IMG/VR virus record: IMGVR_UViG_3300021958_000038
DNA length: 64,000 bases
From: a virus
Direction: 5' to 3' (one strand)
In this document: positions 6,396-54,597 of the stretch, one piece after another
Numbering within the stretch: position 1 is the stretch's first letter
How the letters are laid out: every line of letters begins with the position of its first letter
The notes under the pieces: model-generated
Seen by the model: the letters and a program-made list of their open reading frames with translations, nothing else
The model's database searches: none
Told to the model about the DNA's origin: nothing
Made by a program: the position numbers and the translations under genes

Positions 6396-7095
6396 GGTTA
6401 AAGTGCCTCTCATACACATGTAAGTTTTGTACCTGCCAGTAAATATCACCAGCTTTTATAACATCGCCACTAAATGCTGAACCAGTTAATTTATTTAAAT
6501 CGTTTACCATTGTATCTCTAACATGTTTCTGCCATGCAAAGTCATTACGATAACCAAAGATAACATCGTTACTACGCATTTGAATAACGCAATCTAGGAA
6601 ACCATCACGAATATAATATGTTACAGCATTAGTACAAATGAAATCGTTTTTACCATTTTCTTTGTACTCAACCCAAATGCTTGGACGGTTGTAAACCATA
6701 CATGCTCTGCGAGAGTCTGGGTTTTTAATTAATTCGTCAAGTGCATTTTCATATTGTTCAAAGTATTTTTCACCATAGATTAGTAATCCATAATTAGAAT
6801 TGATTTCCCCATGTTTGTTTGCTGTATATAGCCATGCTTGCGGTGGTTCCATATCGTTACCTACAGCATCTACACCTCTGTTAATATCATAAATGTTTGT
6901 TGACTCAGAATCATACCATTCAATTTCTTGTTGAATATATATTTTGTTTGGAGTACCAAAGATAGCATCTTCATCTGCAATAAATGAAGCACCAATAAGT
7001 TCAATTGTCTTTTGACCTGTTTTATCAATAGTAAAATTTTCGTTACCTAGCTCATTTATAAAATGAGTTCTAATATCACTAACTGTCTGATGCAT
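6385..7095 (-). CDS. gp42: dCMP hydroxymethylase (T4 gp42-like, thymidylate synthase fold)
   Basis: DKTG.KTIELIGASF, EINSNYG, NPDSRR, DFICTN (catalytic Cys), MRSNDVIFGYRNDFAW (Asp = dCMP specificity), LHVYERHF; start at MHQTV. Confidence 0.9.
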   Translation of the reverse strand: MHQTVSDIRTHFINELGNENFTIDKTGQKTIELIGASFIADEDAIFGTPNKIYIQQEIEWYDSESTNIYDINRGVDAVGNDMEPPQAWLYTANKHGEINSNYGLLIYGEKYFEQYENALDELIKNPDSRRACMVYNRPSIWVEYKENGKNDFICTNAVTYYIRDGFLDCVIQMRSNDVIFGYRNDFAWQKHVRDTMVNDLNKLTGSAFSGDVIKAGDIYWQVQNLHVYERHFNLVK

Positions 7096-7420
7096 TTTTG
7101 CTCCTGTTGAAAATATCGTTGTTTGGATTCTGGCCTGAAATACCACCTCTGCAGTAAGCTACAAAGAATGATGAATAATTAATTAAATCTTTAGCTGAGT
7201 CTTCGAGTGATTCGAAGTTTGGTTGATAGTTATCAGATTGCATAGCTTCCATAACAGATAGCATTCTTAGCATTTTGGCATGCATAATGTCATGAATGGT
7301 TGTTACACCATTAGGATAATAGTCTGCTTGACTTATCTTGGAATTGGGATTCTGATAATCGTTGGATTTTTTAGTTTGTAATTCTGCGCATTCTTGCAGG
7401 ACTTTTAAAGATTCTTTCAT
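7079..7420 (-). CDS. Nucleotide-modification-associated domain protein (Nmad1/DUF1599-like, all-alpha NTP-PPase fold)
   Basis: KKSNDY, KMLRM and ESLEDSAKDLINYS pattern; translationally coupled to gp42. Confidence 0.6.
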   Translation of the reverse strand: MKESLKVLQECAELQTKKSNDYQNPNSKISQADYYPNGVTTIHDIMHAKMLRMLSVMEAMQSDNYQPNFESLEDSAKDLINYSSFFVAYCRGGISGQNPNNDIFNRSKNASDS

Positions 7421-7442
7421 AATAACTCCATAATTTAATAGT

Positions 7443-7471
7443 ATTATACCATAAACTCACGCAAATGTACA
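7443..7471 (-). promoter_or_regulatory. Promoter TGTACA-N17-TATAAT upstream of the modification cluster
   Basis: tgtaca tttgcgtgagtttatgg tataat. Confidence 0.75.
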
Positions 7472-7479
7472 GGGTTTTT

Positions 7480-7899
7480 TTATTTTTTTTCGTAAATAAT
7501 TCCCTGCTCATTAAGTGCTGCTCTATTCCATAGATGACCTTGTTCTGTATCATCTTTAGATTGTCCAAAATATGGCACTGCATGATGTTCATCAATTTGT
7601 TGTTGATTAATACTATATGAACTATCTCCAATAAAAAGTTCACCAAGTATTCTACCAAACTTACCTTTGTCATGCGATACCATTTGTATCTCTTGGTCTT
7701 TTAAAATTTTCTTTAAATTTGCTTTACTTGCTTTACCGTAAAATTTTTCTTCTAAATCACGAGTCCTAGATTCTGGAGTATCAATACCCATCATTCTAAC
7801 TCTTTGCTTTTTGTAAATCATTCCGAAGCCTAAATCGACATCAACGTCAATTGTATCTCCGTCAACAATTCTCGTAACATAAACTTTATATCTATACAT
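7480..7899 (-). CDS. Thermonuclease (SNase-like) nuclease
   Basis: RIVDGDTIDV, RVRMMGIDTPES, KGKFGRILGEL. Confidence 0.88.
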   Translation of the reverse strand: MYRYKVYVTRIVDGDTIDVDVDLGFGMIYKKQRVRMMGIDTPESRTRDLEEKFYGKASKANLKKILKDQEIQMVSHDKGKFGRILGELFIGDSSYSINQQQIDEHHAVPYFGQSKDDTEQGHLWNRAALNEQGIIYEKK

Positions 7900-8165
7900 T
7901 ATTCTTCTTCTCCTATAATTGCTCTAACATGTTCTGAACGAATTATTACAGCTGCATTTCCTTCTACATTTACTGGCATAGATTTAGACCAATCTAGGAA
8001 AACTCTTTGACCTCTTTTTAATTGGCTATTTGCTTCTGAACCTACTGATAGAACTAAACCAGGTTTACTTGCTTTATCAATTGATTCCGTTAATATAATT
8101 CCACCAGCTGATTGTTTATCTTCTGCAACTTCAGCTATTAATACATTGTCTGCTAACATTTTCAT
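7899..8165 (-). CDS. groES: GroES-like co-chaperonin
   Basis: LADNVLI, mobile loop SAGGIILT, GLVLSVG, GQRVFL; start at MKMLAD with AGGA upstream. Confidence 0.82.
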   Translation of the reverse strand: MKMLADNVLIAEVAEDKQSAGGIILTESIDKASKPGLVLSVGSEANSQLKRGQRVFLDWSKSMPVNVEGNAAVIIRSEHVRAIIGEEE

Positions 8166-8175
8166 AATTTTTTTC

Positions 8176-8688
8176 CTATTTGTAAAATATATGTTCATCA
8201 ATTTGAGTCACATATTCAAGTTGGTCTGCCCAATAAGGCAGAATGTAATCTGCATGATACCATAAGGCACCTTCAGTAATATCTTTATACTTTCCCGTCA
8301 ATGCTAAATCTGCAATATAAAGCGATTTAATCCAAGTCTTAGAATCAACCGGTTCATCAGATTTTCCATCACAATACCAACTAAATTGACACTGATTTCT
8401 AATTGGAACTTCATTGCCTTTCCAATTTGTGTATGTTTTAGCTTGATAAATTACACCGCATACTGTATTTGGGAACTGTAAATCTTCCATTCTATTTATA
8501 ACAACATGTGCTACAGCTAATTTACCAGCAAATGATTGATTTGCTGATTCAAAATAAATATTTTGTGCCATACAATATCTATCATAAGTTTCTTCTTCCT
8601 CACTTGCAAATACATGAGGTACACTTAAAATTGCTACAACCAATGCTGCAATCCATAGTGAAATTTTTCCATAATCCGGACTATTCAT
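8176..8688 (-). CDS. Cell wall hydrolase (SleB/Hydrolase_2 family) with N-terminal signal/TM segment
   Basis: CMAQNIYFES, AVAHVVINR, FPNTVCGVIYQ, CQFSWYCDGKSD, GALWYHADY, HIFY. Confidence 0.88.
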   Translation of the reverse strand: MNSPDYGKISLWIAALVVAILSVPHVFASEEEETYDRYCMAQNIYFESANQSFAGKLAVAHVVINRMEDLQFPNTVCGVIYQAKTYTNWKGNEVPIRNQCQFSWYCDGKSDEPVDSKTWIKSLYIADLALTGKYKDITEGALWYHADYILPYWADQLEYVTQIDEHIFYK

Positions 8689-9541
8689 CTAACTTCTCCT
8701 TAATATAATCTTTTAGTGAAACTTTAGCCGACCAACCTAGGTCTTTTAATTTTTCATTTTTAACATCAGCATCTAAACGATTTGCTGAATTACCTTGAAC
8801 CATTTTAGGTTTACAACCTAGCATTTCTACTACGTCTAAAATAGAATAACTTTGATTCGATGCTATACCATACTCATCACCTATACCTTCCATACCAGCA
8901 ATTATTAATCCGTTGACTGTATCATCAATATGAGTAAAGTTTCTCAGCTGAGTTCCTGGTTCTGTAACTGGTAATTCAGTGGCTCCATTTTTTACCATAC
9001 TTAAATATTTTGCAATTACTGTAGAATAATCGCCTTCTGAAATTTCACCATCACCATAAACATTGTAAAAGTATACAATTGAATATTCTAAATAGAACCA
9101 ATTAGAATAAGATTTTAAAAATTCTGTATTTTGCCATTTTGTATATGCGTATGGACTCATTGTATATCCTGGAACATCTCCTTTACTAAATTTAGTTGAA
9201 GAGCCAGAATAAATAAACTTTGCTTGTTGATGTTTTGCAAATTCAACTACAGCTGGAAATGACATATAATTAGATTGAATTACTTTTTGATAATCATCAA
9301 ATGATTTTTCTACTCTTGCATATTCTCCTAAATGCCAAATATAATTAAATTTTTCTTTATTATGTTGCCATATAGAAAATAAATCAAATGCATCACCATA
9401 ATAGTACTTTGCACCTTTATGTTGTTTTTTACCTGTAGAATGATTATCCAAGACTGTAACATCTTCGCCAGCTTTAACTAATTTTTCTACCAAATGTGAA
9501 CCAATAAATCCACAGCCACCAGTTACTAAATGTCTAGCCAT
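8681..9541 (-). CDS. NAD-dependent epimerase/dehydratase (extended SDR)
   Basis: LVTGGCGFIGSHL, SPYAYTK, FYNVYG, RNFTHIDD. Confidence 0.92.
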   Translation of the reverse strand: MARHLVTGGCGFIGSHLVEKLVKAGEDVTVLDNHSTGKKQHKGAKYYYGDAFDLFSIWQHNKEKFNYIWHLGEYARVEKSFDDYQKVIQSNYMSFPAVVEFAKHQQAKFIYSGSSTKFSKGDVPGYTMSPYAYTKWQNTEFLKSYSNWFYLEYSIVYFYNVYGDGEISEGDYSTVIAKYLSMVKNGATELPVTEPGTQLRNFTHIDDTVNGLIIAGMEGIGDEYGIASNQSYSILDVVEMLGCKPKMVQGNSANRLDADVKNEKLKDLGWSAKVSLKDYIKEKLDE

Positions 9542-10458
9542 TATATATTATTCCTAAAAACGAATTCAATTGCTCTTTCAGCTTCTCGACCAATATCTCT
9601 TTTTGAATACCAGTTGCCAGTATCATTATCCAAATCTCTACAAAGATATTCGATTTCTTTTGATGTAATAGGATAACCCTTGGACATTGCATTACCTGCA
9701 GTTGACACCATAATCTGATACATTTTACTATACCAGCCAGTTCCATTAATTGCTTTATATTCTTCAACTTGTTTTTTGTTTACAAAAGGACAGTCCAAAT
9801 ATCCGGTCCAAGAATAGTTAGTGTTGTTAAGTTGTCCTTTTCTGTGTTCGATGAGTCCTTTTTTAATTGCATCTGGTAACTTATCGAAAAATGATTCATT
9901 TGGTACAACGTATCTGTGCTTTTCCATGAGTGCCATTGGTTCCATAATTTTTCCATCATGGGAGAATATGAAATTGAAAGCCCCGTCGTATTGACTTGGT
10001 ACGTAGTACATTCTGGATAAATCTTTTGTTTGTGCATCTGCGATATCTCCTATCTCTTTATTTAATGCATACCAAAAATGTTTAATGTTATCTGCTGGGA
10101 TTGCTTCAGTTAGTGGAAATACTAAACGAAACTTTGGTTTTTCTTTGGTTGATGATGCTGTTGAATAGCAAACATATCGATATTGAGAATATTTCTTTTC
10201 GATATCTTTTACATCACCTTCATAATCATCAATATCAAGAATGCCGAAACCACCCCAGCCGGTTACATTGGAATTTGCTCGAGTGGTCTCGGTCTTATAA
10301 ATTGCTGGACTGATTAAGGGAGCATCTTTTTTCTTAAGATACTTTTTCTGTTCCGCTAAACGATATAAAACTTGCTCAAACTCATCGAATGAATTGTAAT
10401 CCATTCGCTTTTCTGTTTTATTATCGTATATGTTATCAAATATTGTTAAGCTTACCAT
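9541..10458 (-). CDS. Archaeo-eukaryotic-type primase/PrimPol-like protein
   Basis: PLISPA, LDIDD (DxD), YSTASS..KPKFRLVFPL, D.QTKDLSRMYYVP, helical PriCT-like C-terminus. Confidence 0.7.
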   Translation of the reverse strand: MVSLTIFDNIYDNKTEKRMDYNSFDEFEQVLYRLAEQKKYLKKKDAPLISPAIYKTETTRANSNVTGWGGFGILDIDDYEGDVKDIEKKYSQYRYVCYSTASSTKEKPKFRLVFPLTEAIPADNIKHFWYALNKEIGDIADAQTKDLSRMYYVPSQYDGAFNFIFSHDGKIMEPMALMEKHRYVVPNESFFDKLPDAIKKGLIEHRKGQLNNTNYSWTGYLDCPFVNKKQVEEYKAINGTGWYSKMYQIMVSTAGNAMSKGYPITSKEIEYLCRDLDNDTGNWYSKRDIGREAERAIEFVFRNNI

Positions 10459-10858
10459 GATTACCGCTGTGGTCTGGACCCTCCCAGTCCGCTGGTTTAA
10501 TTAAATCTGGCAATCCAAGTGGATTTGGCCTTGATTCTTTTACACCTACTTCTTTTGCAAGATTTGCTTTGAGTACTTCGTCCCATGCTTTGTATGGGTC
10601 AACGCCAAATGCATCGAGTGTACCAATAGCAACAACACATAAATCAATTAATCCATCGACAATTTCTTCTGCATCTTTATTTGTTAATGCTGCTTCAGTC
10701 TCCATTAGTTCTTCTCGTAAGAATCTAACTCTGAACTGTAGATATTCTCTTAGATTATCTTTATTATCTTTATTTTTATGCATCCACATCTTTACGCCAT
10801 ATTTGTATTGCATATCTGATATGTCTTTTACCCAATTGTTACTCATTATAGTCTCCAT
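10436..10858 (-). CDS. MazG/PRA-PH-like NTP pyrophosphohydrolase
   Basis: FLREELMET, EIVDGLIDL, AWDEVLKANLAK, DLIKP.DW..PD. Confidence 0.8.
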   Translation of the reverse strand: METIMSNNWVKDISDMQYKYGVKMWMHKNKDNKDNLREYLQFRVRFLREELMETEAALTNKDAEEIVDGLIDLCVVAIGTLDAFGVDPYKAWDEVLKANLAKEVGVKESRPNPLGLPDLIKPADWEGPDHSGNHGKLNNI

Positions 10859-11468
10859 TAACTATTTGTTCTACTTCCGATGCAATATGATTTGCACCTA
10901 ATTGTTTTGTTATCTCAATTACTTCTGGTAGAATCTTTATTGCCTGCGTATATGTAAGCTCTCTCCAATTCTTTAAAACATAATTGTGTTTATTATCGTT
11001 ACTCAGTTGAGCATTTACCCACTTATATCTATAACCAAATTTTTTATCCATTTCGTCATGTAAATATGTTTCGAGCTTTCTGCCATTAGTAAAATTAACT
11101 GCATCAGCTGCATTCTTAATAAACAGATATCTAACTCTTAGGTCATCGACATCATAATCGCCAGCTGCCAAAAGCATTTTAATTGGATGTGCTCCCTTTG
11201 GTACAGTGACTGCTCTTGTTCTACCAATAATATCTCTAAGCGCGGTTCCGATATATCCAATGTCTCCGTGAATAACTTTTTCGCCAATTTTTTCTAAATC
11301 GTCTTTATGTGCCCATTGATATACCCCATGGATTTGATTTCCTCCTGGGTCTTTAGAACCTGTGAATTTTCCATATTCACTTACCCATTCTTCGTATTGA
11401 GGAACAGATAATGTAGGTACTTCGTCTGCTTTAATCCAGTCAGTTATATGTTCAATTGATTTTATCAT
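10839..11468 (-). CDS. Hypothetical protein, putative GIY-YIG-like nuclease
   Basis: HGVY...GYIGT...GR...KLETYL...WVN resembles the GIY-YIG motif order. Confidence 0.5.
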   Translation of the reverse strand: MIKSIEHITDWIKADEVPTLSVPQYEEWVSEYGKFTGSKDPGGNQIHGVYQWAHKDDLEKIGEKVIHGDIGYIGTALRDIIGRTRAVTVPKGAHPIKMLLAAGDYDVDDLRVRYLFIKNAADAVNFTNGRKLETYLHDEMDKKFGYRYKWVNAQLSNDNKHNYVLKNWRELTYTQAIKILPEVIEITKQLGANHIASEVEQIVNGDYNE

Positions 11469-11785
11469 TTTGGTACGATAATATCCTTGGAAGGTACTTG
11501 GATTCCAGCACCCTTGCCTGACATTTGATTAATTTGGTCGGAAAGTTGTCCGACTGGTTTTACTGTGAATAATATATGTTTATTATCAATTGTAACACCT
11601 TTGTGAGCTTCTGTATAAGCCATAAAAGGAATGAATGCGATTTTACCTTCACCACCTGGTAATAAGTTAAAGCCGTTTTCAATTGTAAGTGAATCTTTAC
11701 CTTTGGTAACATCACCAACAATTTCTTCTCCTGATACGAGTCTTACAAGAAGTTGTTCAGTTTTTAGTTTCATAGTTTTCTCCAT
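11465..11785 (-). CDS. Conserved T4-like phage small protein (Sm-like fold)
   Basis: LVRLVSGEEIVGDV N-terminus and FIPFM; typical gene next to gp43. Confidence 0.6.
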   Translation of the reverse strand: MEKTMKLKTEQLLVRLVSGEEIVGDVTKGKDSLTIENGFNLLPGGEGKIAFIPFMAYTEAHKGVTIDNKHILFTVKPVGQLSDQINQMSGKGAGIQVPSKDIIVPK

Positions 11786-11796
11786 TTTGTAGTAGT

Positions 11797-11825
11797 ATTA
11801 TACCATACTTTTTATTAAATGTACA
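11797..11825 (-). promoter_or_regulatory. Promoter TGTACA-N17-TATAAT downstream of gp43
   Basis: Exact 6-17-6 spacing, TGG extended -10. Confidence 0.75.
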
Positions 11826-11829
11826 GTGC

Positions 11830-14352
11830 TTATCCAAAGAAATCCTCCAATGTAGATATTTCTTCAGGTGACCACCCTACAGCATCCAATACTGGCTGAA
11901 TTGGGTCCAAGAATGTTTTTTGGAATTGCAATTCAAAGTCAATATATTTGTGTAAACCAAATTCGTCTGGTAAGTAATCTGGAAATGCGATTACATTTTC
12001 ATGTATACGATTTGGCGTTTTCAAATAGACGAATTTAATCTTTTCGCCGTTTTTGATTTTTGTGTATTTTTTATTTAATGAAAGGTCATCAACTTGGCTG
12101 TTGTATAATAATGAGCCTCTGACATGAATTGGTGTACCTTTTTTGTAAATAGTTGTGTTGCCTTTGTATTCTCTAACTTTGGATACGCCACGAGGGAATG
12201 CAATTTCATGTGGCTGTAATGTTGTAAAGTAATTTTTAAAATGGTCAATAGCTTGTTGTGTTTGGCTTTCGTTACCACTCATAATAACTTTAAAGATTTC
12301 TTTAAGAGCATCACGACATGGCTCAGGTGTTGACGATTTAATAGCTTCAATACCCATAATCTTAAGTTTAGGTTCAGCATAACGAACACCTTCGTTATCG
12401 TGGACATTTAGAATATATCGCTTTTTAGCTGTCCACAATCCTTTGTCTGCAATAGCTTCTCGTTTCATAACCATACGATTATCAATACCGCCAAACATTC
12501 CAAAGAGTACATCATATGAATTTTCGAGTACTGGCTCTAGATTTTGTGCACAAACTTTATCAAGAAAGTCAATAGGATTTGGTGGATTAATTGCTTTTAC
12601 TAAATCATCTAGGCATACATACAATGAATCTGTGTCGATGGCAAGTACATAATCTTTCCATGATTTTCCTTTTCGCAATGTTTTATTGAGGTGGGCGTTG
12701 ATTGCATATTCGGCCCATCGAATGGTGAGCTGTCCTGTAAGGGTAATTGCTTCTGCGATTCTCTGGTCAAAGAATCTAAAATATTTATTCCCCATAGCAC
12801 CATAGAGAGAATTAAGAAGAATTTTAATTGCCATCTGTCTATTTTCGGCCAGTGAAATTTCCCTTTCAATCGAGTAAAGTTCTTGTTTATCATTTTTATC
12901 TACCTTTTGTAATTTTTTTTGAGCATTAATCATTTCGCTTTTAATGCCAACCCTTTCGTTATACATATCGTCAATAATCGCTGGAAGAATACCTTGCCTT
13001 TCTGTTCTGAAGTATTGTCCATTTGCGGCTAGGGCTTTGCCTTTATTGTCGATGTTTTGTGATTTGGTGAGGACAGCTTCGATATCGACTTTAGTAACTT
13101 CTCCATCTGCAATAGTTTCAGGTGACATATTGTATTGCATAATGATAGAAGGATATAGTGAGTTGAGGTCGAAGCTGACCACATTGTCATGAATACCAAC
13201 TAATGGGTCTTTTACGAAACCACCAGGATAGTTAGTTTTTGTTTTATCTTCTGAGAATGGAACAACCATTTTATTATCTGTCAACTTACGATAAATGATT
13301 GTGTCCCATATAGCAGTTGTACCAAAAGTATCAGAATAGTTTACACCTGCTTTATATGCGATTGTCATTGCAAGAGTAATAAGACCCATCTTATCTTCTA
13401 GTCTATCAACCAACTCAACGTCTTTGATATTATAGTCAATAAACTTTTGAAAATCGTTTTTATATAAACTATAAATTGAACCATATTCTTCGTATGACAA
13501 TTTCTTTTCGCCAAGTACGACATTTGCAATATGGTCGAGTTTGTAAGATTCTTGAGCACCGTATGAGTAACCAAACTTAATGAATAACTCTAGGTAATCC
13601 ATATTAGATATACCTTTTAATTCATAGGCAACTTGTGTTCTGCCTTGTTTAGTAATTTCTCTACGTTCAATCATTCCCCAGGGACTTAGTCGCTTAGAGA
13701 ATTGTTCGCCAAGAAGTTTTAGAATTCTGTTGTGTAAATATGGAATATCAAAGAATCTTGTATTCCAACCAGTAATAACATCTGGTGAATGTGTTGTTGA
13801 ATCCCAATGACCAATAAAATCGATTAACAAACTAGATTCTTGTTCGAATTTTTTATAGACCACACGGTGGGTTTTCATAATAGTATTTTCAACATTATAA
13901 TCACCGAGTCCCCAGACGTAGTAAGTATTATCGATATTGTTTTTGATAGTAATAGCTGTAATGACATTATCTGCTCTATCTGGTTCTGGGAATCCGTCGT
14001 CTGATGCGACCTCGATGTCGATTGTTGTTACGTTAATTAGATTACGATTAAATTCAATCTGTCCAGGGAATTCATCGTTAATAAAAGTAGAAATATAACG
14101 AGTGTTTCCAAAGATATCTCTACCAGCTACATCTTTGTTTTGGCCAATCCAATCTTTGGCTTCTCGCATGGATTCAAATCTGACTTCTCCGACTGGAGTT
14201 CCGTCAAGTGCTTTCCATGATGTTGGACGGTTTGTTGAAACATACAGTTTCGGACCGTATTTGATTTTTTGTGTTACACGTTTTCCATTTTCGTAACCAC
14301 GATATAATAGCATATTGCCATATCGGGATACGTTTGTGTAGAATTTCATCAT
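11830..14352 (-). CDS. gp43: DNA polymerase family B (gp43)
   Basis: Exo DIEV, GWN..FFDIPY, YNIKDV; polymerase [28 protein letters not shown]; C-terminal clamp motif TLEDFFG. Confidence 0.99.
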
Positions 14353-39225: not shown

Positions 39226-40665
39226 TTAATGGTCGGTCGAATCGTTAGCCTCTACAATATCGCTCAATATAAAGCGTTTATTTGGGTTAATTGCAACCTT
39301 AAATTTGGTCATTAATTTACGATTAACTAACATTTCGGATGCCGTATCCTTGGTAGATAATCCTATTTCTGCATTATAACGTTTGTTGTTAAATATAATT
39401 GTGTGTTCTATTACAGGTCTTCTATCAAATGGTTTTAAACCTCTTTTTGGTTCAGATACATATAATACTTCACTCTTAAATGATGCACCATTTTTGGTCC
39501 ATTTTACATAATCACCATCAGCTTCCATGCTATCGACATGTAACATAGTAGCAGAAGCACTATTACCAGTATCAAACTTCGCTCTAATAGGGTCATTTTC
39601 CATACCTTCTAATCTAATACTCTCAATATACCCTGCCTCTTGTCTCATTAGAGCTCTCCTAGCTCTCTCATCTGAATATATGTCTAATATACTCTCTATT
39701 GTTTCTTCATCAGAAATCTTCCTAGTAGGTTTTTGTGTTTTATAATCATAACCCATAAAGTGTGAACGAATACCTGGTGAACCGTTTACTTCTAATATAT
39801 AAGCTTTTCCTTTATATACACAATGGTCAACACCACAATATGAAGCTCCACTACTTCTTGCAGCCTTTATAACTAATTCTTTTTCTTCTTCTGACAATTT
39901 ATATGGCTTTGTATCTGCCCCTAAATGAACATTATTTCTAAAATCTTTATTTTCTCGTTGTCTTATTCTTTCAGCAGCACCAATAATTTTATTATTTACT
40001 AATAATGTACGAACATCAGAGCTTACATCTAAAAATTCTTGTAATAAAATAGACGCATCGTATTTCCATAATGATTGACATACCGAAACTAATGAACTCA
40101 TATCATTTACTTTAGATACACCAACGCCTTGAGTACCAGTTAGTGTTTTAATAATTACTGGAAATTTACCACCAATTCTTCTATGAGCATCTTCGATTGA
40201 TTTAACATTATTTACAATAGATGTTTTTGGTATGTTTATATTATTTCTTTCTAGTGCAATAGCATTTGACATCTTGTTACTACATAACATCATAGCTTCT
40301 AAATCATTCACTAAGAAAAAGCCGATTGTTTGTAAAGATGATACTAGTGATTGTGAAGTTAAACTTTCCACAGCTCCACCTCGTACGAAAATAAGTGTAT
40401 TACTTGTTTCTATATCTAATGAATTATCTTCTCCATCATAGTTCTGAATAGTTACCTTACCAATTTCAACATCAGAATCTGCAATAAAGGCTTCATCGAC
40501 ATCAATAAGTTCGCAGAAAATATTCTTTTTCTTTGCAACTTTTTTAAGTAAATTAGCAAAAGTACCATCAGCATCGCCATAACCTAATATGACAATTTGC
40601 ATATCCTGTATAGGTATATCCTCTGTCTGTTCTTTTACTGTAAAATAATCGTTAAAGTTTTCCAT
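39226..40665 (-). CDS. RimK-like ATP-grasp ligase fused to C-terminal retropepsin-like (RimK-associated) protease domain
   Basis: FPVIIKT..GTQG.GV, LLQEFL, DVRTLLV, FRNNVHLG, ILEVNGSPG; then AKFDTGNSA..LH, RRPVI; start likely overlaps gp17 stop. Confidence 0.85.
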   Translation of the reverse strand: MENFNDYFTVKEQTEDIPIQDMQIVILGYGDADGTFANLLKKVAKKKNIFCELIDVDEAFIADSDVEIGKVTIQNYDGEDNSLDIETSNTLIFVRGGAVESLTSQSLVSSLQTIGFFLVNDLEAMMLCSNKMSNAIALERNNINIPKTSIVNNVKSIEDAHRRIGGKFPVIIKTLTGTQGVGVSKVNDMSSLVSVCQSLWKYDASILLQEFLDVSSDVRTLLVNNKIIGAAERIRQRENKDFRNNVHLGADTKPYKLSEEEKELVIKAARSSGASYCGVDHCVYKGKAYILEVNGSPGIRSHFMGYDYKTQKPTRKISDEETIESILDIYSDERARRALMRQEAGYIESIRLEGMENDPIRAKFDTGNSASATMLHVDSMEADGDYVKWTKNGASFKSEVLYVSEPKRGLKPFDRRPVIEHTIIFNNKRYNAEIGLSTKDTASEMLVNRKLMTKFKVAINPNKRFILSDIVEANDSTDH

Positions 40666-42275
40666 TAGAAATTTTGTTTCCACTCTTGTTCGAACCAGAT
40701 GTTTCCATCTTCATCTTTTATACCTTTATTTATACTGCTTGGATTACCATCATCTATATAACCAAACGGCAGCATATCATCTTGAATAGCTGCTAACTTT
40801 TCTCTAAATAATAAATCTTTCATATCAATATTAGATAAATTTTCAAATATATCGGTTGATGTAAACCACGCAAATAAAACTAAGTTCATCATTAAATCAT
40901 CGTGATTAGGTGGTGATGCTTGATATGAATTGCCTTTCATTACAAAAGTACTTAATTCTACAATTGTATTAGCATCGTGTATATCTAGTCTTTTTGTCTC
41001 AATTAAATCTTTTATATTTGAACAACCAATTCTTTTAACTCTCTTTGTCATTGTACAACCTAAAGCATTTGCTTTAATACTTGATTCTACAAACATATTT
41101 TCATATTCTAAATCATAATATAAACCATTACATACAACAGCTCCTGCATCATTACTTTCAATTACTACATAAGCATCATTAAAAGTTTTTGCATATTTGT
41201 ATATAATATCTGGAAATAATATTGGTGATAAAGTATTATCTCTAAACGTAGCTACTTGACTAAATGGATTTGTTGTTACATCTATAATAGTAAATGTACT
41301 GTAGTCTTGATTTCTACCCTTAGATACATCAACCGTCATTACATATTCGTGGTCTGGTTCAGGCTCTGAATATATCCAAACATTTTCTTTATAGTATAAT
41401 GGGTCTTTAGATTTTTGTCTCATTAAATGATTAGCATCAATTAGCGTATTACCTCTGCCATGGAATGTATTACCAAACTCTTGGTCAAATTGTAATTCTG
41501 ATGTGTTAGCTATTGTAGTTTCTTTCCACTTTTCATCTCTTCCAGGTACATCCCACCAATCAACTCTTAAAGGTTTAAATTCATTTGTACCTTGAGCAGC
41601 ACCTTCCCATAGTTTATGATACACATTACCTACACCATTTGCAGTAGATGTAATAATAACCTTTGAATCGCTACCAGATGAAACCACCGGATAAGTTGAT
41701 GTAAAGAACTGTGCATCTTTTTCTACAAAGGCAAACTCATCGAGAAATAGTAAGTTAATAGATAAACCCCTAATAGAACTACCAGATGTAGCTGCTGCTA
41801 TAATCTTAGAGTTATTGCTAAATTCAAGTGAACCTTTATTTAATGCTTTTGTTCCTGGCTGTAAAAAGAATGGTAAATTTTCTAAAGCCAAAGTAATCCT
41901 GGCCAACATTTCTCTTGCCACTGCGCCTTTGTTAGCTAATATAGCAATAGTTTTTTCTGGGTGAAATATTGCATACCATAATAGAAATACAACTGATGAA
42001 ATAGATTTTCCAGACTGACGACATGCAAGAACAATATTAAATCTCTCATCTTTAAATTGATTAAACATTTTCTCTTGATAAGGATATAAATTAAATGGTA
42101 CTAAACCTTCATCAAGAGAAATAACTTTTACATAAGTCCTAGCAAAATATGCAGGGTTTTGCATACATTTAGCATATTCTTGTACTTCATCTTTTGTAAA
42201 AGATGTTTCGACTCCGTCTCTTTTGACAGATGGATTACCTAAGTAACCAAATTCGCTATTCTTTATCCTCTGCAT
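40665..42275 (-). CDS. gp17: Terminase large subunit gp17
   Basis: ACRQSGKS, FLDEFAF, ITSTANG, DVSKG..DYS, HDDLMM. Confidence 0.98.
   Translation of the reverse strand: MQRIKNSEFGYLGNPSVKRDGVETSFTKDEVQEYAKCMQNPAYFARTYVKVISLDEGLVPFNLYPYQEKMFNQFKDERFNIVLACRQSGKSISSVVFLLWYAIFHPEKTIAILANKGAVAREMLARITLALENLPFFLQPGTKALNKGSLEFSNNSKIIAAATSGSSIRGLSINLLFLDEFAFVEKDAQFFTSTYPVVSSGSDSKVIITSTANGVGNVYHKLWEGAAQGTNEFKPLRVDWWDVPGRDEKWKETTIANTSELQFDQEFGNTFHGRGNTLIDANHLMRQKSKDPLYYKENVWIYSEPEPDHEYVMTVDVSKGRNQDYSTFTIIDVTTNPFSQVATFRDNTLSPILFPDIIYKYAKTFNDAYVVIESNDAGAVVCNGLYYDLEYENMFVESSIKANALGCTMTKRVKRIGCSNIKDLIETKRLDIHDANTIVELSTFVMKGNSYQASPPNHDDLMMNLVLFAWFTSTDIFENLSNIDMKDLLFREKLAAIQDDMLPFGYIDDGNPSSINKGIKDEDGNIWFEQEWKQNF
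40727..40734 (-). promoter_or_regulatory. Possible late promoter TATAAATA within gp17 3' end (RimK fusion)
   Basis: Exact TATAAATA about 60 nt upstream of the RimK start. Confidence 0.5.
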
Positions 42276-42681
42276 CGATTATTACATTATCCTTATTTGT
42301 ATCTAATAAAGCTCTTTGTAGCTCAGTTGTGCTACCAACAAAAACATTATTTTGAGTTAACCTCTGTTCTTGTTTTTTCTTGTCATCATCTTCTTTATTT
42401 AATTCTTTTTTAGCTTTTTGTAAAGCCATCAACTTTTCAGTTGTATCACCAATGTCTTTTATAGATTTAGATAAAACTTCGAATGCCCTTGGACTTTCCG
42501 CTTCTCTGGCAAGTTGTGATAGTGCATCAAGAGATTGTACACCAGTTCTTATTAAGTCTTTATATGTTGACCTTGAAAATTCATAATCGTCTTTTATGTC
42601 TTTTTTATCGACATAATCTTTTTGTTTTTTCACTGGCAAATTCTTTTCTAAAGAATTTTTTAACTTATTTAGTTTTTCCAT
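42256..42681 (-). CDS. gp16: Terminase small subunit gp16
   Basis: DDYEFSR, ESPRAFEV, NNVFVGSTTELQ; position before 17. Confidence 0.88.
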   Translation of the reverse strand: MEKLNKLKNSLEKNLPVKKQKDYVDKKDIKDDYEFSRSTYKDLIRTGVQSLDALSQLAREAESPRAFEVLSKSIKDIGDTTEKLMALQKAKKELNKEDDDKKKQEQRLTQNNVFVGSTTELQRALLDTNKDNVIIDAEDKE

Positions 42682-43445
42682 TAATCATCATAAGGATTAT
42701 TATCAATTGTAGTTGTTACGGTATAACTTTCTGCCGTATCAGTATTACCAACTGTAAAATCCATCTCCTCAAATATGTTTGTATTATTGCTAGTTCCAAA
42801 CTTTTCCAAATCAACATTAATTTCTCTAATTAAACCAACATCTCCTGTAGGTCCATAGAATTTCATTTTCATAGTAAAATCCATTTGATAGATTAATACT
42901 CTTCTTGTAACAAAGTCAGATTCATAATCATCTTGAATTGTTACACTGTCTAAAATAACTGGGACATCTTGTTTCATATCGAAACCATCAACAGGTTTAA
43001 TAGTAACTGTATAATCTGGTTGGAAATATGGAATGATTTGTTCTATAATTTGTAAGCCATCATCTTGGTTTTTAACCATTGCATATAATGACATTGTTAT
43101 ATTGTATGAAGCATAGTTTTTTATTGTCTTTCTTTTTGTAACATCACTACCATGTGCTTCTACTATTTTTTTTAGTTTACCTAATGATTGGTTAGTATCT
43201 TTTTCTACACCAGTAATTTCAAAAGCCAATCTTGGTAGTTTAATTGCTAACGGTGCTTCAAAGCCAGCCTCTTGGTCTAACCTAGCTAAAAACTTTTGTT
43301 TAGGTCCGTATGCTAATGGTACTTTTACTTGATTAAGTATACCGCCACTGCCATCTTTTCTGATTACACTTATGTTATTAAACAGTGTACCAAAAACAGC
43401 TACTGCCTTTCTGGTTGTTGCGTGGTAAAAATGACCTCCAAACAT
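42681..43445 (-). CDS. gp15: Tail sheath stabiliser/terminator gp15
   Basis: FYH..RKAV..FGTLFNNI, VPLAYGPKQKF, QIIEQI.PYFQP. Confidence 0.95.
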   Translation of the reverse strand: MFGGHFYHATTRKAVAVFGTLFNNISVIRKDGSGGILNQVKVPLAYGPKQKFLARLDQEAGFEAPLAIKLPRLAFEITGVEKDTNQSLGKLKKIVEAHGSDVTKRKTIKNYASYNITMSLYAMVKNQDDGLQIIEQIIPYFQPDYTVTIKPVDGFDMKQDVPVILDSVTIQDDYESDFVTRRVLIYQMDFTMKMKFYGPTGDVGLIREINVDLEKFGTSNNTNIFEEMDFTVGNTDTAESYTVTTTIDNNPYDD

Positions 43446-44371
43446 TAGTAACTCTCCGATGGGTCACCGAACGGATTAGATTCAGTAAAGTCTATAAAAT
43501 TATCTGCTACGTGCTCAAACGCTACGTTATCAGCTCCACCGTCAGATGGGAATACATTATCGTCATCGTTATCGCCTATATCATATACCTTTGTAATTGT
43601 ACTTGAGTAACTATTTTCAGAACCAACTATTGGCTTAGTTGCTGAAGCTACAAATTGTCTATAAGTTTCTGAACCGCTTACACCGATATTAGCAACTGTA
43701 ATTTTTCCAGAATTACCAGATGTCTTAGTTACAGAAGCCACTTCAGCAAATATTGAAATGCCAGTTTCTAGTTCTTGCGTTACTGTTTCACCAACTACAA
43801 AGTGTTGGTCTCCAGTACCTAGTGTTATATTCATAGCAATTTGATATGCCTGTGATACAGTTTTATTATCTATATCAGCAACACCGGTATCAAAGTCTTC
43901 ATCTGAGAACTCGAATAATGTACATGCTAATCTATAAACTGGTAAATTAGATAACTGGAAGAATGGTGAATCGTCTTCTACATATGAAATCTCAAAGAAT
44001 GAGTTAGTCATTGGTAGGAATAATAAATCACCTTCCAACGGTTTGTCCGTAGCTTCTTTTAAACCTACTGCATGATTCCAAACTTTTCTAGAGATAACAA
44101 ATTGTGCTTCGTCTCTAATCTCTAATCCAAACTTAGAATATAAGTCCCCGTCTCCTTCAAAGCCATCAACGTTTTCGATATATGCTTCCATTAAATAAGC
44201 ATCATCAAATCTAGACGCAGGGTCTTCATTTAAAATGGTATCTCTATTTACTAAAGTTCTTGGAATATAATAGACATCTTGTCCATATATCTTAAGAGAC
44301 TCGACAATAAGGTCTTCGTATAAATTTTGTTCAGCCCTTACTGCCTGAGAGAAATATACATTCCTAGGCAT
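43445..44371 (-). CDS. gp14: Neck protein gp14
   Basis: ESLKIYGQDVYYIPR, SKFGLEIRD, PLEGDLLF.P, NPFG. Confidence 0.95.
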   Translation of the reverse strand: MPRNVYFSQAVRAEQNLYEDLIVESLKIYGQDVYYIPRTLVNRDTILNEDPASRFDDAYLMEAYIENVDGFEGDGDLYSKFGLEIRDEAQFVISRKVWNHAVGLKEATDKPLEGDLLFLPMTNSFFEISYVEDDSPFFQLSNLPVYRLACTLFEFSDEDFDTGVADIDNKTVSQAYQIAMNITLGTGDQHFVVGETVTQELETGISIFAEVASVTKTSGNSGKITVANIGVSGSETYRQFVASATKPIVGSENSYSSTITKVYDIGDNDDDNVFPSDGGADNVAFEHVADNFIDFTESNPFGDPSESY

Positions 44372-44374
44372 ATT

Positions 44375-45124
44375 TTATCCTGTATAGAAGTCGATTGGTT
44401 GTTCCCAATTCAATCTAACTTCTTCTTCTAATTTTTCTAATTCTGCTATCGCATCGTCAAATAACTGTCTTCCGTTAAATGTAACTCCGCCTGGCATTAC
44501 CATTCCTTCAAATTTAAGAAGGTTTGTTCCCCATTGTTTCTTTAACAATGAAGTTAGATATTTCTTTAAATAATAATCGTTATAAACATCTGTAAATGTG
44601 TCTGGGTCGATGATACGATAACATTCAACTACTAAATAATCATTTACTGAAACTTCTTCGCTCCAAGCCATATCAATTCTTAATCTATTTCTATGTCTGT
44701 CAAAGGAAATAAATTTATTGTCATTATCAATAACTAAATCTAGTGTTGAAAGATATTGCTGGGCCATTGAGTATTCTAATAGTGAACCCATATAACCTAA
44801 ACTAAACATATCGTTTAAATGCATCTGATATTTAATATCAAATAAATTATTAGCTGAATATGTATCTCGGATTGGTAACACTCTTAATACATCAGTAACT
44901 AAATCATTAATAGCAATATAGCCATTATCAATATCTGTTTGTGTTACTTGGTGTTTTAAAAATACCTTTTCAATAGCATCAGCATGGTAGTGCTGATAGA
45001 ATTGTAGAGCTTCGTCTACTCTATCATCGATTTGGTCTTCATCAACATTAATTTCAATTACTGGTGCACCTAGATTTCTAAGGCAGTAATCAATTAATGT
45101 AGTTCTGCTGTTTGGTTTTGCCAT
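44375..45124 (-). CDS. gp13: Neck protein gp13
   Basis: YCLRNLGAPVIEINV, KKQWG.NL.KFEG..MPGGVT.NG. Confidence 0.96.
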   Translation of the reverse strand: MAKPNSRTTLIDYCLRNLGAPVIEINVDEDQIDDRVDEALQFYQHYHADAIEKVFLKHQVTQTDIDNGYIAINDLVTDVLRVLPIRDTYSANNLFDIKYQMHLNDMFSLGYMGSLLEYSMAQQYLSTLDLVIDNDNKFISFDRHRNRLRIDMAWSEEVSVNDYLVVECYRIIDPDTFTDVYNDYYLKKYLTSLLKKQWGTNLLKFEGMVMPGGVTFNGRQLFDDAIAELEKLEEEVRLNWEQPIDFYTG

Positions 45125-45147
45125 TTAATACCTCGATAATAATAGTT

Positions 45148-45167
45148 TATTTATAGAACTATTTATA
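45148..45167 (-). promoter_or_regulatory. Tandem late promoters TATAAATA x2 (gp13)
   Basis: Copies at 45148-45155 and 45160-45167. Confidence 0.72.
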
Positions 45168-45183
45168 AGATTTTAGATACTAT

Positions 45184-47073
45184 CTAATACTTATCACCAG
45201 TATATCTGCTAGACCACATTGTAAGAGAATATTTAGTTCCTTTTAATAATTCAGTACATTCATGACCATGAGTAACGGCCCCAGGGAATAATATACACCA
45301 ACCTGGTGGAATTTCTTTATTAGAAATACCTTGTCTAGGAAATATTAAATCGGCTCCTTCATAATCTTCATTTAATTTAACTGAACCAGTAACTAAACTT
45401 GCATCAGTATGCAATGGTAAATCTTTTTGTGTATCTACAGAATACTTCATAATAAAAGCATCTCTTAACCCATACATTTCCATAGGATGCCAATATCTTT
45501 CAATGATGGGATATAAATGTTTTTTCCAATGTGATTCTAATTCTTCAAATAGTCCTAATTCTTTCATTCTAATTTCTTGAGCTGGAAATTTATCACCTGG
45601 CATTGGCTCCCAAGTATTTAATTTATCACCCATTTCAATTAATCTTTCACATTGAGATTGGTTCATAAATTTAACTAATAACATATCTTTATCTAAAATC
45701 TGAAATTCGTTACCTGTGGGTAAATATAACTGTGGAAAACTTGAAGGTAATAGTTTAGCTTTTACATCTTGCAATGTTGAATAATTAAAATTATTATCGC
45801 CATTTGCATGATAAACTAATGGGCAACTATTAGTATTTGGATTATATAATTGATTATCAAGAGTAGTTATATCTTTATCAGCTGTTTGAAATAAATAACC
45901 TGTATTATCAATTATAATATCCCATTCGTTTTTAAAGAATTGTTCTTGGTAAAAAGCTTGGTCATCATCGTGTACATTTTCATCATAATGTGATATAATA
46001 TCTTGTAGCACACCAGCTCTTCCAATAAAGCCACCACTATTTAAATATGGAAAAGGTTGTGTCTCATCAAATCTATCAGCCCATTCTGCATTTGGCCAAC
46101 AACTATTTTCGCCTGAAAAGATTACATCAGCTTTCATTTCTAAAAATCTATTTACTATAGTTTCTTTATCATCACATATTAAAGAATCATATCCATCAGT
46201 AAAGAAAACTAAATCTGTTGGAGCTAGTTGATTAATAAATTCTTTTTGTAAATAAACTTTTTTACCACCATCGCGATGAGTCATAGGACTAAACCAATCA
46301 AAGTTATTACCTAGATTTTTTAAGTATATTCCATTATGAATAGCAGAATCATTTAAGTCTACGAGTTTATGTCTATCAGTACCAATTGTAGTAAAGTGTA
46401 TATTTGTAAAGTCGTGGAAAGCATTGTCTTGTCCGACTTCAATATCAGAAGCTACTTGACTTCTAAAATGTTGCCAACAAGGCTGTGGATTTTCTGTGCT
46501 GTCTGTATAACCTACTGATGACAATGTACCATTCATAATTAATTTTGGAATATGCTCATCTGAAGGTATTAAAGTTCTACCAAACTTTTCTATAAGTATA
46601 CTTGCAGTCTCAGGATACATTGCATAAGCTGTAAGGTTATATGGATAATAAGGTACTACTAAGTTATCATCAATTACTTTTTCCAACCCTGGTTCATTTT
46701 CATTATGCTGTAGATATACAATGTCATAACTGTCTAATAAAGTTTCTACTTCTTCTTCATTATATCTTTCTGGATTTCTAATCCAACAATCGTCTTCCAT
46801 AACAATAACTGGTTCATCACCTTCTGCTATAGCTTTCCAAGCCGCGTAATGACTTAATGTACAACCAACTTCACCTTTCTGCATTTTTCTATCTTTATAT
46901 GGGTCTCTCCATGTTGTATCGATATTCCACCCATGTCTGACTAAAGTTTGCATATTGATTTCTTCGCCATCAACACCTTCAATATACGTATAGTCTTTTA
47001 AATTATTTTTTTCAAATAATTCTTTTCTGTCAGTTCGTCTTTTTAAATTTATTACTAGTTTTTTCATTTCCAA
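45184..47073 (-). CDS. Three-domain collagen-modifying enzyme candidate: GT25 (COLGALT-like) + PLOD-type glycosyltransferase + PLOD-type 2OG-Fe(II) lysyl hydroxylase
   Basis: N: INLKRRTDR, GVDG, WRDPY...KGEVGCTLSHY, VMEDD. Middle: FFTDGYD, FSGENSCWP, YLNSGGFIG, DDQAFY, HANG. C: DAFIMKY, LHTDAS, LNEDYEG, GWCILFPG..THGHE, GTKYS. Confidence 0.85.
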   Translation of the reverse strand: MEMKKLVINLKRRTDRKELFEKNNLKDYTYIEGVDGEEINMQTLVRHGWNIDTTWRDPYKDRKMQKGEVGCTLSHYAAWKAIAEGDEPVIVMEDDCWIRNPERYNEEEVETLLDSYDIVYLQHNENEPGLEKVIDDNLVVPYYPYNLTAYAMYPETASILIEKFGRTLIPSDEHIPKLIMNGTLSSVGYTDSTENPQPCWQHFRSQVASDIEVGQDNAFHDFTNIHFTTIGTDRHKLVDLNDSAIHNGIYLKNLGNNFDWFSPMTHRDGGKKVYLQKEFINQLAPTDLVFFTDGYDSLICDDKETIVNRFLEMKADVIFSGENSCWPNAEWADRFDETQPFPYLNSGGFIGRAGVLQDIISHYDENVHDDDQAFYQEQFFKNEWDIIIDNTGYLFQTADKDITTLDNQLYNPNTNSCPLVYHANGDNNFNYSTLQDVKAKLLPSSFPQLYLPTGNEFQILDKDMLLVKFMNQSQCERLIEMGDKLNTWEPMPGDKFPAQEIRMKELGLFEELESHWKKHLYPIIERYWHPMEMYGLRDAFIMKYSVDTQKDLPLHTDASLVTGSVKLNEDYEGADLIFPRQGISNKEIPPGWCILFPGAVTHGHECTELLKGTKYSLTMWSSRYTGDKY

Positions 47074-47651
47074 TTAGGTCCTTCAATCCAAACAACTAGA
47101 GATTTCCTTACGCCTTTTGTGACTGGTAAAACTCTATGTCTTATATATGATGGGAACATTATGGCGGTTCCCCTATTTCTTATTTCATTCGATGGTATAG
47201 CTGTAAATGAATCTTCAGTTTCAAATTCTCCACCTTGATAATCAGATGGGTCTGATAGTTGAATGCTTAAGCTTAATTTTCTATCTTCATTACTACCATT
47301 ACTTCCATACCAAGAGTCAACATGCCAATTATAATATCCTTTATCCTCAGCAGGATAGACAGTATATTGCATATCGTAAATATTAGTTAATTCGAAATTA
47401 AAACTTTGATTCCAACTATGAAATAGATTATATACTTCTTGTTTTACAGATTTTTCATAATCGTTTCTATCTTGCAACCAACCAGTAATAGAACTTCTAA
47501 CTCCAGTAGTATCAAGCTCGACATTAGGGTCGTGGCCAACACTAGCTGATTTTAATTCTAAATGATTGTCGCAATAGTTCACTAAATCATCACAAAATTG
47601 CTTTGAAAAATATTGGTCTTGGTACAACCAAGCCGGTACACTTACATTCAT
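47064..47651 (-). CDS. 2OG-Fe(II) oxygenase (prolyl-hydroxylase/PKHD-like superfamily)
   Basis: VRSS, YNWHVD (HxD), RKLSLSIQLSDP..YQGGEF, FPSYIRHRV.PVTKG.RKSLV.W. Confidence 0.9.
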   Translation of the reverse strand: MNVSVPAWLYQDQYFSKQFCDDLVNYCDNHLELKSASVGHDPNVELDTTGVRSSITGWLQDRNDYEKSVKQEVYNLFHSWNQSFNFELTNIYDMQYTVYPAEDKGYYNWHVDSWYGSNGSNEDRKLSLSIQLSDPSDYQGGEFETEDSFTAIPSNEIRNRGTAIMFPSYIRHRVLPVTKGVRKSLVVWIEGPNWK

Positions 47652-47656
47652 AATAT

Positions 47657-47664
47657 TATTTATA
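47657..47664 (-). promoter_or_regulatory. Late promoter TATAAATA for the oxygenase + GT/LH pair
   Basis: tataaata-atatt-atg. Confidence 0.72.
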
Positions 47665-47667
47665 CAG

Positions 47668-54597
<6,930 letters not shown>

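Follow-up and report, generated by a model that had tools for sequence, protein, structure and literature searches.

Can a single viral protein carry the activities that build glycosylated hydroxylysine (Hyl), and on which substrate would it act? The question is raised by a minus-strand gene in a 64,000-nucleotide stretch (the window) of the virus record IMGVR_UViG_3300021958_000038, which spans 88.8 kb in IMG/VR and is estimated to be 49% complete. An earlier note, made from the letters of this DNA, had proposed that one polypeptide fuses a COLGALT-like glycosyltransferase (GT) of family GT25, a PLOD-type GT and a lysyl hydroxylase (LH) domain, and that it modifies collagen lysines. We find that the fusion is a real, well-conserved three-domain enzyme. 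We consider it likely that it acts in the cytoplasm as a late maturation enzyme of a marine, T4-like tailed phage, hydroxylating and O-glycosylating lysines at the Y position of the Gly-X-Y (GXY) triplets in the phage's own collagen-like tail fibres. This proposal rests on the three folds, the conservation of metal and donor ligands, the coupling of the gene to a late promoter and the association of the enzyme with Lys-rich fibres.

The open reading frame (ORF) listing gives a 629-codon minus-strand ORF at 45184..47073, opening with TTG at 47073. This ORF exists as the earlier note stated and its translation contains all the motifs quoted there, but the true start probably lies two codons inside, at the ATG at 47067 (third codon), the TTG being unused. 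The ATG is favoured because it overlaps the stop codon of the upstream gene (ATGA) and because relatives begin with MKK(L/F)VINL. Residue numbers of the fusion protein are counted here from the TTG, that is on the 629-residue ORF, although 627 residues are predicted. An AlphaFold2 model built on an alignment of 61 relatives reached a mean predicted local distance difference test score (pLDDT) of 91.2 and a predicted template modelling score (pTM) of 0.81. Foldseek aligned the full model with whole human LH3 (1.5e-26) and, domain by domain, with both LH3 and COLGALT1; mimivirus R699 and R655 were also matched, and bacterial prolyl 4-hydroxylases and a bacterial beta-1,4-galactosyltransferase far more weakly. 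The proposed domain order of GT25, PLOD-type GT and LH thus holds by profile, by PDB sequence and by fold, the Pfam profiles covering both GT domains and the LH fold resting on sequence and structure matches in the PDB. No NCBIfam model matched the fusion protein, and megablast with window positions 40000-48000 found nothing in the phage collection. Residue conservation was scored over 105 aligned full-length relatives that share 36-90% identity with the query, and the numbering of chains was calibrated on residues named in the structure papers for COLGALT1 (PMC12003778), R699 (PMC12279948) and L230 (PMC5802723).

The N-terminal domain was recognised by the Pfam model Glyco_transf_25 over residues 4-125 (2.4e-18, 67.2 bits against a gathering cut-off of 24). 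When searched against the PDB with phmmer, residues 6-179 aligned with the catalytic GT2 domain of COLGALT1 (about 1.2e-13) and, less strongly, the domain matched mimivirus R655 (1e-9). By fold, Foldseek placed it closest to COLGALT1 GT2 (8.4e-14, root-mean-square deviation (rmsd) 2.9-3.7 over ~230 columns), with a bacterial beta-1,4-galactosyltransferase of the lipopolysaccharide (LPS) GT25 type far behind (3e-7). R13, C71, E93-D94-D95, Y145 and D172 are invariant or nearly so in the relatives. R13, C71 and D172 are equivalent to R351, C412 and D522 of COLGALT1, and E93-D94-D95 to its manganese motif E435-D436-D437; the roles of these residues, and the inactivity of the COLGALT1 W495A mutant, have been reported (PMC12003778). 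The conserved pair S209-D210 probably matches the S569-D570 lid of COLGALT1. Trp495 itself aligns with Asn146, a position occupied by Asn in 90 of the 105 relatives and by Trp in the other 15. Since W495 is not kept, the domain was filed as a COLGALT-like GT25 and not as a COLGALT orthologue.

The middle domain was matched by the Pfam model GT_PLOD (PF25342) over residues 227-434 (7.6e-33, 114.2 bits, cut-off 27). Residues 251-430 aligned by phmmer with the GT domain of human LH3, R699 being matched as well, and Foldseek superposed the domain on the isolated LH3 GT domain (6wfv) with a TM score of 0.84 and an rmsd of 2.0. W260, K272, D293, D296, N345, D370, D371, Q372 and H422 are invariant in the relatives; Y295 and N424 are kept in 101 and 104 of the 105, respectively, and the position of W326 holds Trp in 77 and Tyr in 28. 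In LH3 these residues correspond to W75 (W260), K89 (K272), D112 (D293), Y114 (Y295), D115 (D296), W145 (W326), N165 (N345), D190 (D370), D191 (D371), Q192 (Q372), H253 (H422) and N255 (N424). The manganese site (LH3 D112/D115/H253), the uridine-stacking pair W75/Y114 and the pocket for the donor glucose and the acceptor are therefore all present in the phage domain. The residues that form the donor pocket of R699, namely K62, W118, N138, D162, D163, Q164 and H216 (PMC12279948), all have equivalents as well. At the position of LH3 W92 the phage protein has Tyr and most relatives have Asn.

On the C-terminal domain no Pfam oxygenase model was found at E<=0.01, and the LH assignment rests for this reason on sequence and fold matches in the PDB. 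By phmmer, residues 495-618 aligned with the LH domain of human LH3 (E about 5e-7 to 4.5e-8) and residues 463-618 with that of mimivirus L230 (E about 2.7e-6 to 2.9e-7). Foldseek aligned the domain with L230 LH (6ax6) at a TM score of 0.75 and an rmsd of 1.6-2.3 over 170 columns; the fold is PLOD/L230-like and not TET/JBP- or AlkB-like. The earlier note had described an intact HxD...H iron triad and a Lys in place of the Arg that usually binds 2-oxoglutarate (2OG), and both observations are borne out. The triad H555, D557 and H604 aligns with H667/D669/H719 of LH3 and H825/D827/H877 of L230, and does not vary among the 105 relatives or across the 109 representative sequences. The position that contacts the 2OG C5-carboxylate is K614, where LH3 has Arg729 and L230 Arg887, and it is Lys in 105 of 105 relatives. 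Among the wider representatives Lys marks the clade of the window protein, while a second phage clade and most of the longer forms described below have Arg, three long forms having Lys. Because the clades alternate between the two residues, Lys and Arg interchange naturally at this site. Lysine is the usual 2OG ligand in prolyl 4-hydroxylases.

L230 and LH3 are tail-to-tail dimers, in which L873 (L230 numbering) of one chain inserts into an aromatic pocket of the other (PMC5802723). The equivalent of this knob in the phage protein is V600, and W528, M531 and V561 take the places of L230 Y798, Y801 and Y831 in the pocket. Prediction of a homodimer of the LH domain (residues 446-629) gave a score of 0.65 against 0.27 for the best control, a result that may reflect memory of solved LH dimers; 21 of the 30 solved pairs, and none of the 23 single chains, came up to the mark set for this score. 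The runs agreed in at least 87% of contacts with a partner pLDDT of at least 84, and V600 packed against W528, M531 and V561. The prediction suggests likeness to the solved LH dimers and is no proof of binding. The PLOD-type GT ends at about residue 441 and the LH domain begins at about 455, leaving a gap of about 10-15 residues, and the two domains are directly connected in the model. This bears out the earlier claim that the accessory domain of PLOD is missing.

Taken with what is known of the homologues, this architecture points to a succession of three steps. The LH domain, probably acting as a tail-to-tail dimer like L230 and LH3, would hydroxylate the Y-position lysine of Gly-X-Lys in new, still unfolded fibre chains to 5-hydroxylysine. 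The GT25 domain would transfer a first hexose from a UDP-sugar onto the oxygen of Hyl; this hexose would be Gal if the domain behaves like COLGALT1, or Glc if it follows L230. COLGALT1 uses UDP-Gal as its donor, whereas the homologous domain of L230 uses UDP-Glc (PMC9614988). The PLOD-type domain, with its fully conserved glucose-donor pocket, would add a second sugar, most likely alpha-1,2-glucose. The order of Gal then Glc put forward in the earlier note is suggested by the animal homologues, the sugars being unreadable from sequence; L230, the one fused relative that has been characterised, places Glc directly on Hyl. No clear galE was found in the record: two genes of the short-chain dehydrogenase/reductase (SDR) epimerase family lie far below the galE cut-off, and one of them belongs to an apparent DNA-modification cluster. 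A bolder reading, which we hold to be possible but somewhat less likely than not, is that one soluble 627-residue cytoplasmic protein runs the whole path from Lys through Hyl and hexosyl-Hyl to dihexosyl-Hyl. Glycosylated Hyl, usually seen as typical of animal collagen, would then be common on marine phage virions, and the phage form would be a lineage distinct from the PLOD clan of giant viruses and animals, and perhaps an older one. The modification may benefit the phage through helix stability, protease resistance or receptor contact.

The predicted substrate is encoded next to the enzyme, by two collagen-like tail fibre genes, A and B. Together they contain 463 GXY triplets with 117 lysines at Y and none at X; proline shows the reverse preference (122 at X, 7 at Y), and Thr occupies half of the Y positions. 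A lysine at Y followed by Gly is the site used by lysyl hydroxylases, and GLKGEP, found in both fibres, resembles the peptide ETGLKGII on which L230 LH was tested (PMC5802723). The same bias is seen in the collagen-like proteins beside relatives of the enzyme. The ratio of Lys at Y to Lys at X is 22:0 in Synechococcus phage S-CAM9, 26:0 in Roseobacter phage CRP-6, 88:0 in a divergent myophage (L011), 26:0 in a small phage which carries the GT25 as a separate gene (L013) and 34:0 in a phage of the second clade (L015). In a lambda-like prophage (L016) with the repeats in its GpJ fibre it is 52:0, whereas that of Arg is 22:5. A scan of IMG/VR revealed 532 stretches that encode a relative, and there are more than 100 clusters at 90% identity. 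Of the 36 enzyme loci whose upstream flank extends for 5 kb or more, 33 carry a collagen gene on the same strand, and in all 80 fetched enzyme loci taken together 8362 triplets have Lys at Y in 2514 cases and at X in none.

The association was also examined in reverse, starting from the fibres. We fetched 78 loci through the C-terminal chaperone region of the fibre, which is 61-98% identical with or without the enzyme, and restricted the count to the 35 in which collagen repeats were present and the downstream sequence reached 5 kb or more. Lys-rich fibres were accompanied by the enzyme in 24 loci and lacked it in none, and Lys-free fibres were accompanied by it in none and lacked it in 11 (Fisher p 2.4e-9, or 1.6e-8 after removal of near-duplicates, values that overstate independence since the phages are related). 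The Lys-rich and Lys-free classes are interleaved in similarity rank. Prochlorococcus phage P-SSM2, which has no enzyme, has ~320 collagen triplets with zero Lys. It was the sole usable single-genome control among five, and the larger IMG/VR test was used instead: no collagen match was obtained for HTVC008M, Ralstonia YL1 or Burkholderia JC1, and only a single weak one, below the cut-off, for S-SSM7. Synteny and perfect co-occurrence with Lys-rich fibres thus support the earlier idea that the enzyme modifies collagen lysines. An observation of another kind comes from a bacterial assembly (L017, a 172-kb contig), in which positions 6451-12189, on a bacterial chromosome, hold a cassette of the small oxygenase and a three-domain enzyme with no obvious phage genes nearby. 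Short collagen-like genes lie on either side; that which was tallied is GPP-rich and, unlike the phage fibres, has no Lys in its repeats.

Could the GT domains instead O-glycosylate the abundant threonines at Y, as in Bacillus BclA and the cuticle collagen of vent worms, rather than Hyl? Thr makes up about 50% of the Y positions, and glycosylated Y-Thr stabilises some collagens. However, Thr stands at 50% of Y positions with and without the enzyme, whereas Lys falls from 22% to 0%. Moreover, in every case the GT domains are joined to a lysyl hydroxylase or encoded beside one, and their nearest solved homologues act on Hyl or Gal-Hyl. We regard this alternative as very improbable, and Thr was rejected as the acceptor because its content is equal in fibres with and without the enzyme. 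Equally improbable is an auxiliary or host-takeover gene whose product would act on LPS or proteins of the host or on the DNA of the phage. The JGI product name refers to LPS biosynthesis by a GR25 enzyme, phrog_61 is filed under moron and auxiliary metabolic genes, and the phage has sugar-nucleotide and DNA-modification genes elsewhere. Against these stand the late promoter, the location inside the structural module between fibres and neck genes, and the perfect association with Lys-rich collagen. The LH domain is like PLOD and L230 and not like TET/JBP or AlkB, and the bacterial LPS GT25 is a much poorer fold match than COLGALT1 (3e-7 vs 8e-14). We rejected modification of DNA or LPS as its role because of the fold specificity, the gene position and the promoter.

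A closer rival, which we consider unlikely but less so than the preceding two, combines the hydroxylase with a single glycosylation, giving Glc-Hyl or Gal-Hyl, the other GT being structural, in the manner of COLGALT1 GT1 or the PLOD accessory domain, or acting on another acceptor. The only product measured for L230, the closest characterised fusion, is the monosaccharide Glc-Hyl, which R699 did not extend (PMC9546862). Furthermore, COLGALT1 Trp495 is Asn in the phage GT25, which may mean that this domain differs in donor or acceptor handling, and there are phage variants with only GT25 and LH or only PLOD-type GT and LH. On the other side, both GT domains keep all their metal and donor ligands across 105 relatives with identities as low as 36-60%, which is unexpected if one were purely structural, and a GT25 that is missing from the fusion can be a separate upstream gene, as in L013, so that the three activities are retained. 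The L230 product and the Trp495 replacement also weigh against our own proposal, as do three further points. No collagen gene was present in the sequence examined at three of the 36 loci with at least 5 kb upstream, nor at L003 and L012; the loci compared are related phages and not independent samples; and a literature search gave no biochemical or proteomic evidence for Hyl or its glycosides in phage virions. A late enzyme that modifies the Y-position lysines of the phage's own fibres nevertheless appears to us the likely reading.

The nearest experimentally characterised system is mimivirus L230, a protein of 895 residues that opens with a GLT25D1-like domain bearing the EDD motif and closes with an LH domain. 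Experiments have proven that it hydroxylates Lys (PMC9614988, PMC5802723) and that it transfers Glc to Hyl (PMC9614988). It aligns over 78% of PLOD1 and also matches COLGALT1 (supplementary file 4 of PMC9546862). With its architecture taken from these papers, the supplementary table and the long-form relatives, L230 shares with the phage protein the order GT25, PLOD-type GT and LH, the EDD motif and the iron triad, and its dimer knob has a predicted counterpart there. Both are viral and are paired with Pro-poor, Lys-containing collagen-like proteins of the same virus, and L230 is active when produced in E. coli. The phage protein differs in lacking the accessory domain of about 220-330 residues, in being 30% shorter, in having Lys and not Arg at the 2OG site, in belonging to tailed bacteriophages and not giant viruses, and in that its gene adjoins tail-fibre genes. 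R699, a Gal-Hyl glucosyltransferase (9DYT) which extends Gal-Hyl and not Glc-Hyl (PMC9546862), and the GT25 protein R655 (9CRZ) are stand-alone versions of the two GT modules. Unlike the modules of the phage protein, they are encoded by separate genes, and R699 has an accessory-like second Rossmann domain, through which it dimerises.

With human LH3/PLOD3 (GT-AC-LH, AC being the accessory domain; PDB 6FXK) the phage PLOD-type GT and LH domains share their folds, the manganese and UDP-Glc ligands and the iron triad. In COLGALT1/GLT25D1 (GT1-GT2; PDB 9EVJ) it is the catalytic GT2 that lies nearest to the phage GT25, with equivalents of EDD, R351, C412 and D522. The phage protein has neither the AC domain (PF13704-like, about 250 residues in animal PLOD) nor the COLGALT1 GT1, and at three human positions it or its relatives have other residues: Asn for W495, Tyr or Asn for W92 and Lys for R729. 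In animals LH3 and COLGALT1 are two proteins of the endoplasmic reticulum that form a complex, whereas the phage has one cytoplasmic chain with no signal peptide region. The single-chain fusion is real but not unprecedented, as L230 and about 35 giant-virus-type clusters have the same order. What is new is the compact form of tailed phages, without accessory domain and with a tail-fibre substrate; the joining of COLGALT-like and PLOD-like modules was already known. A literature search found no paper that describes an accessory-domain-less phage form.

An exhaustive search of representatives gave 3101 matches at E<=1e-3 and 149 at E<=1e-30, and their architectures were annotated with domain hidden Markov models. 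Short forms with the order GT25, PLOD-type GT and LH make up about 47 clusters at 50% identity, with a gap of 1-46 residues between PLOD-type GT and LH. The giant-virus-type long forms, clustered at the same identity, have a gap of 218-330 residues, sometimes more, and for PLODs and long viral forms together the range is 216-330 residues; one of them (P0213) aligns with LH3 residues 15-712 behind its GT25 domain, and another sits in a giant-virus-like contig with HSP70. Labels in the ESM Atlas agree with this division: clusters of ~620 residues are assigned to Uroviricota, an 881-residue cluster with PF13704 to Nucleocytoviricota, and clusters of ~730 residues to chordate PLOD. Members from cyanophages (S-CAM9 S820908_031, S-PRM1 and S-8S53/55/56) and from Roseobacter phage CRP-6 (gp58) are 38-43% identical over the full length and lie in the same position, adjoining fibre genes. 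Current annotations of the family read hypothetical, 2OG-Fe(II) oxygenase (phrog_61, 'moron, auxiliary metabolic gene') or, at JGI, 'GR25 family glycosyltransferase involved in LPS biosynthesis', and none of them assigns a role in modifying collagen.

Modular variants were seen in P0124 (942 residues), P0131 (875 residues), P0147, L013 and clusters of the Atlas. They include a duplicated GT25 with part of a PLOD-type GT ahead of the three domains, an N-terminal TylF-like O-methyltransferase that hints at sugar methylation, a split form with the GT25 as its own gene immediately upstream of PLOD-type GT and LH (L013), and phage clusters carrying only GT25 and LH or only PLOD-type GT and LH. In an unrooted maximum-likelihood tree of the PLOD-type GT and LH regions of 94 representatives, all long forms fall into one clan with the animal PLODs nested inside (100/100), the window protein belongs to a short-form clade (100/94), and a second short-form clade is separate (100/100). 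This topology shows that the phage form is no recent offshoot of animal PLOD or L230; being unrooted, the tree gives no ancestral form. Animal-type PLODs, which have no GT25, lie deep within the GT25-bearing long-form clan, as sister to a 984-residue GT25-PLOD protein from NCBI records (P0122, P0260 and P0193 are the tree members concerned). Such nesting, in an unrooted tree, would be compatible with the GT25 module having been lost in the lineage leading to animal PLOD.

The genes around the fusion are all on the minus strand, within a T4-like structural module. They follow in transcription order as further tail-fibre genes, the two collagen-like fibres, a small oxygenase, the fusion, and neck genes like gp13, gp14 and gp15; the coordinates are given in the table below. 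The late box and the ATGA overlap indicate that the fusion is late-transcribed and translationally coupled to the small oxygenase. Two further TATAAATA boxes lie between the stop codon of the fusion and the gp13-like gene. The major capsid protein most resembles those of Pelagibacter phage HTVC008M (64%) and of the Methylophilales Melnitz phages.

Table. Features of the enzyme locus, in window coordinates.
Feature	Position	Strand	Details
Three-domain enzyme gene	45184..47067	-	627 aa from ATG at 47067; stop codon 45184-45186
GT25 domain, COLGALT1 GT2-like	46408..47067	-	aa 3-222; Pfam, PDB sequence, fold
PLOD-type GT domain	45739..46407	-	aa 223-445; Pfam, PDB sequence, fold
Lysyl-hydroxylase double-stranded beta-helix domain	45187..45738	-	aa 446-629; PDB sequence, fold
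2OG-Fe(II) oxygenase, 195 aa	47064..47651	-	PF13640, PKHD/PiuC-like; ATGA overlap with fusion
T4-type late promoter box TATAAATA	47657..47664	-	5 nt before oxygenase ATG; heads oxygenase and fusion unit
Collagen-like tail fibre A, 1336 aa	47668..51678	-	259 GXY triplets; Lys Y 61, X 0; C-terminal Peptidase_S74 chaperone (Pfam)
Collagen-like tail fibre B, 972 aa	51679..54597	-	204 GXY triplets; Lys Y 56, X 0

The small PF13640 oxygenase shows an association of its own. In the loci L035-L114 it lies upstream of the fusion in 19 of 25 with fibres rich in X-position Pro and in one of 22 with Pro-poor fibres (Fisher p 6e-7; 4e-5 with duplicates removed). Because its presence tracks the Pro content of the collagen, it is a probable hydroxylase of the X-position proline in the GP(T/Q/A) triplets of the fibres. 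A 30%-identical homologue is gp072 of HTVC008M, a phage with neither collagen, no collagen gene being found anywhere in its genome, nor the fusion. HTVC008M is the nearest relative in culture, and in its slot upstream of the neck genes (L018, 56.8-59.7 kb), four tandem 2OG-Fe(II) oxygenases and a ferrochelatase replace the oxygenase and fusion.

Elsewhere in the window, the minus strand of 2007-7146 encodes a nucleoside diphosphate (NDP)-sugar dehydrogenase (truncated, UDP-Glc dehydrogenase-like), an SDR epimerase/dehydratase, a C5-cytosine-methylase-like protein, a TET-associated glycosyltransferase (PF20691) and a thymidylate-synthase-like protein, which look like a cluster for DNA base hypermodification by glycosylation. 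Fragments of the fusion gene at least 99% identical occur in four marine metatranscriptome libraries, where DNA carry-over is possible, and DNA of the phage was seen in some 20 studies of estuarine or marine samples. Two metatranscriptome runs yielded contigs in which 216 bases within 47727-47944, in the C-terminal region of fibre A, are missing and 195 different ones stand in their place; this difference probably reflects a variant fibre-tip allele in related phages rather than RNA processing.

If our proposal is correct, glycosylation of Hyl is not confined to animals and giant viruses but occurs widely on the fibres with which abundant marine phages bind their receptors. It would explain why Lys occupies 15-80% of the Y positions in some phage collagen fibres and none in close relatives, and would suggest that the surface chemistry of the fibres can be tuned, with a bearing on host range and virion stability. 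The short phage protein is naturally suited to the bacterial cytoplasm and might serve to produce recombinant collagen in hydroxylated and glycosylated form in E. coli, as has been suggested for L230 and R699 (PMC9546862). The assignment corrects a systematic annotation gap, in which these proteins are called 'hypothetical', '2OG-Fe(II) oxygenase', 'LPS GT25' or 'AMG' (auxiliary metabolic gene). It would also provide an outgroup-like lineage in which to study how the accessory domain of PLOD originated and how COLGALT and PLOD came to be separate proteins.

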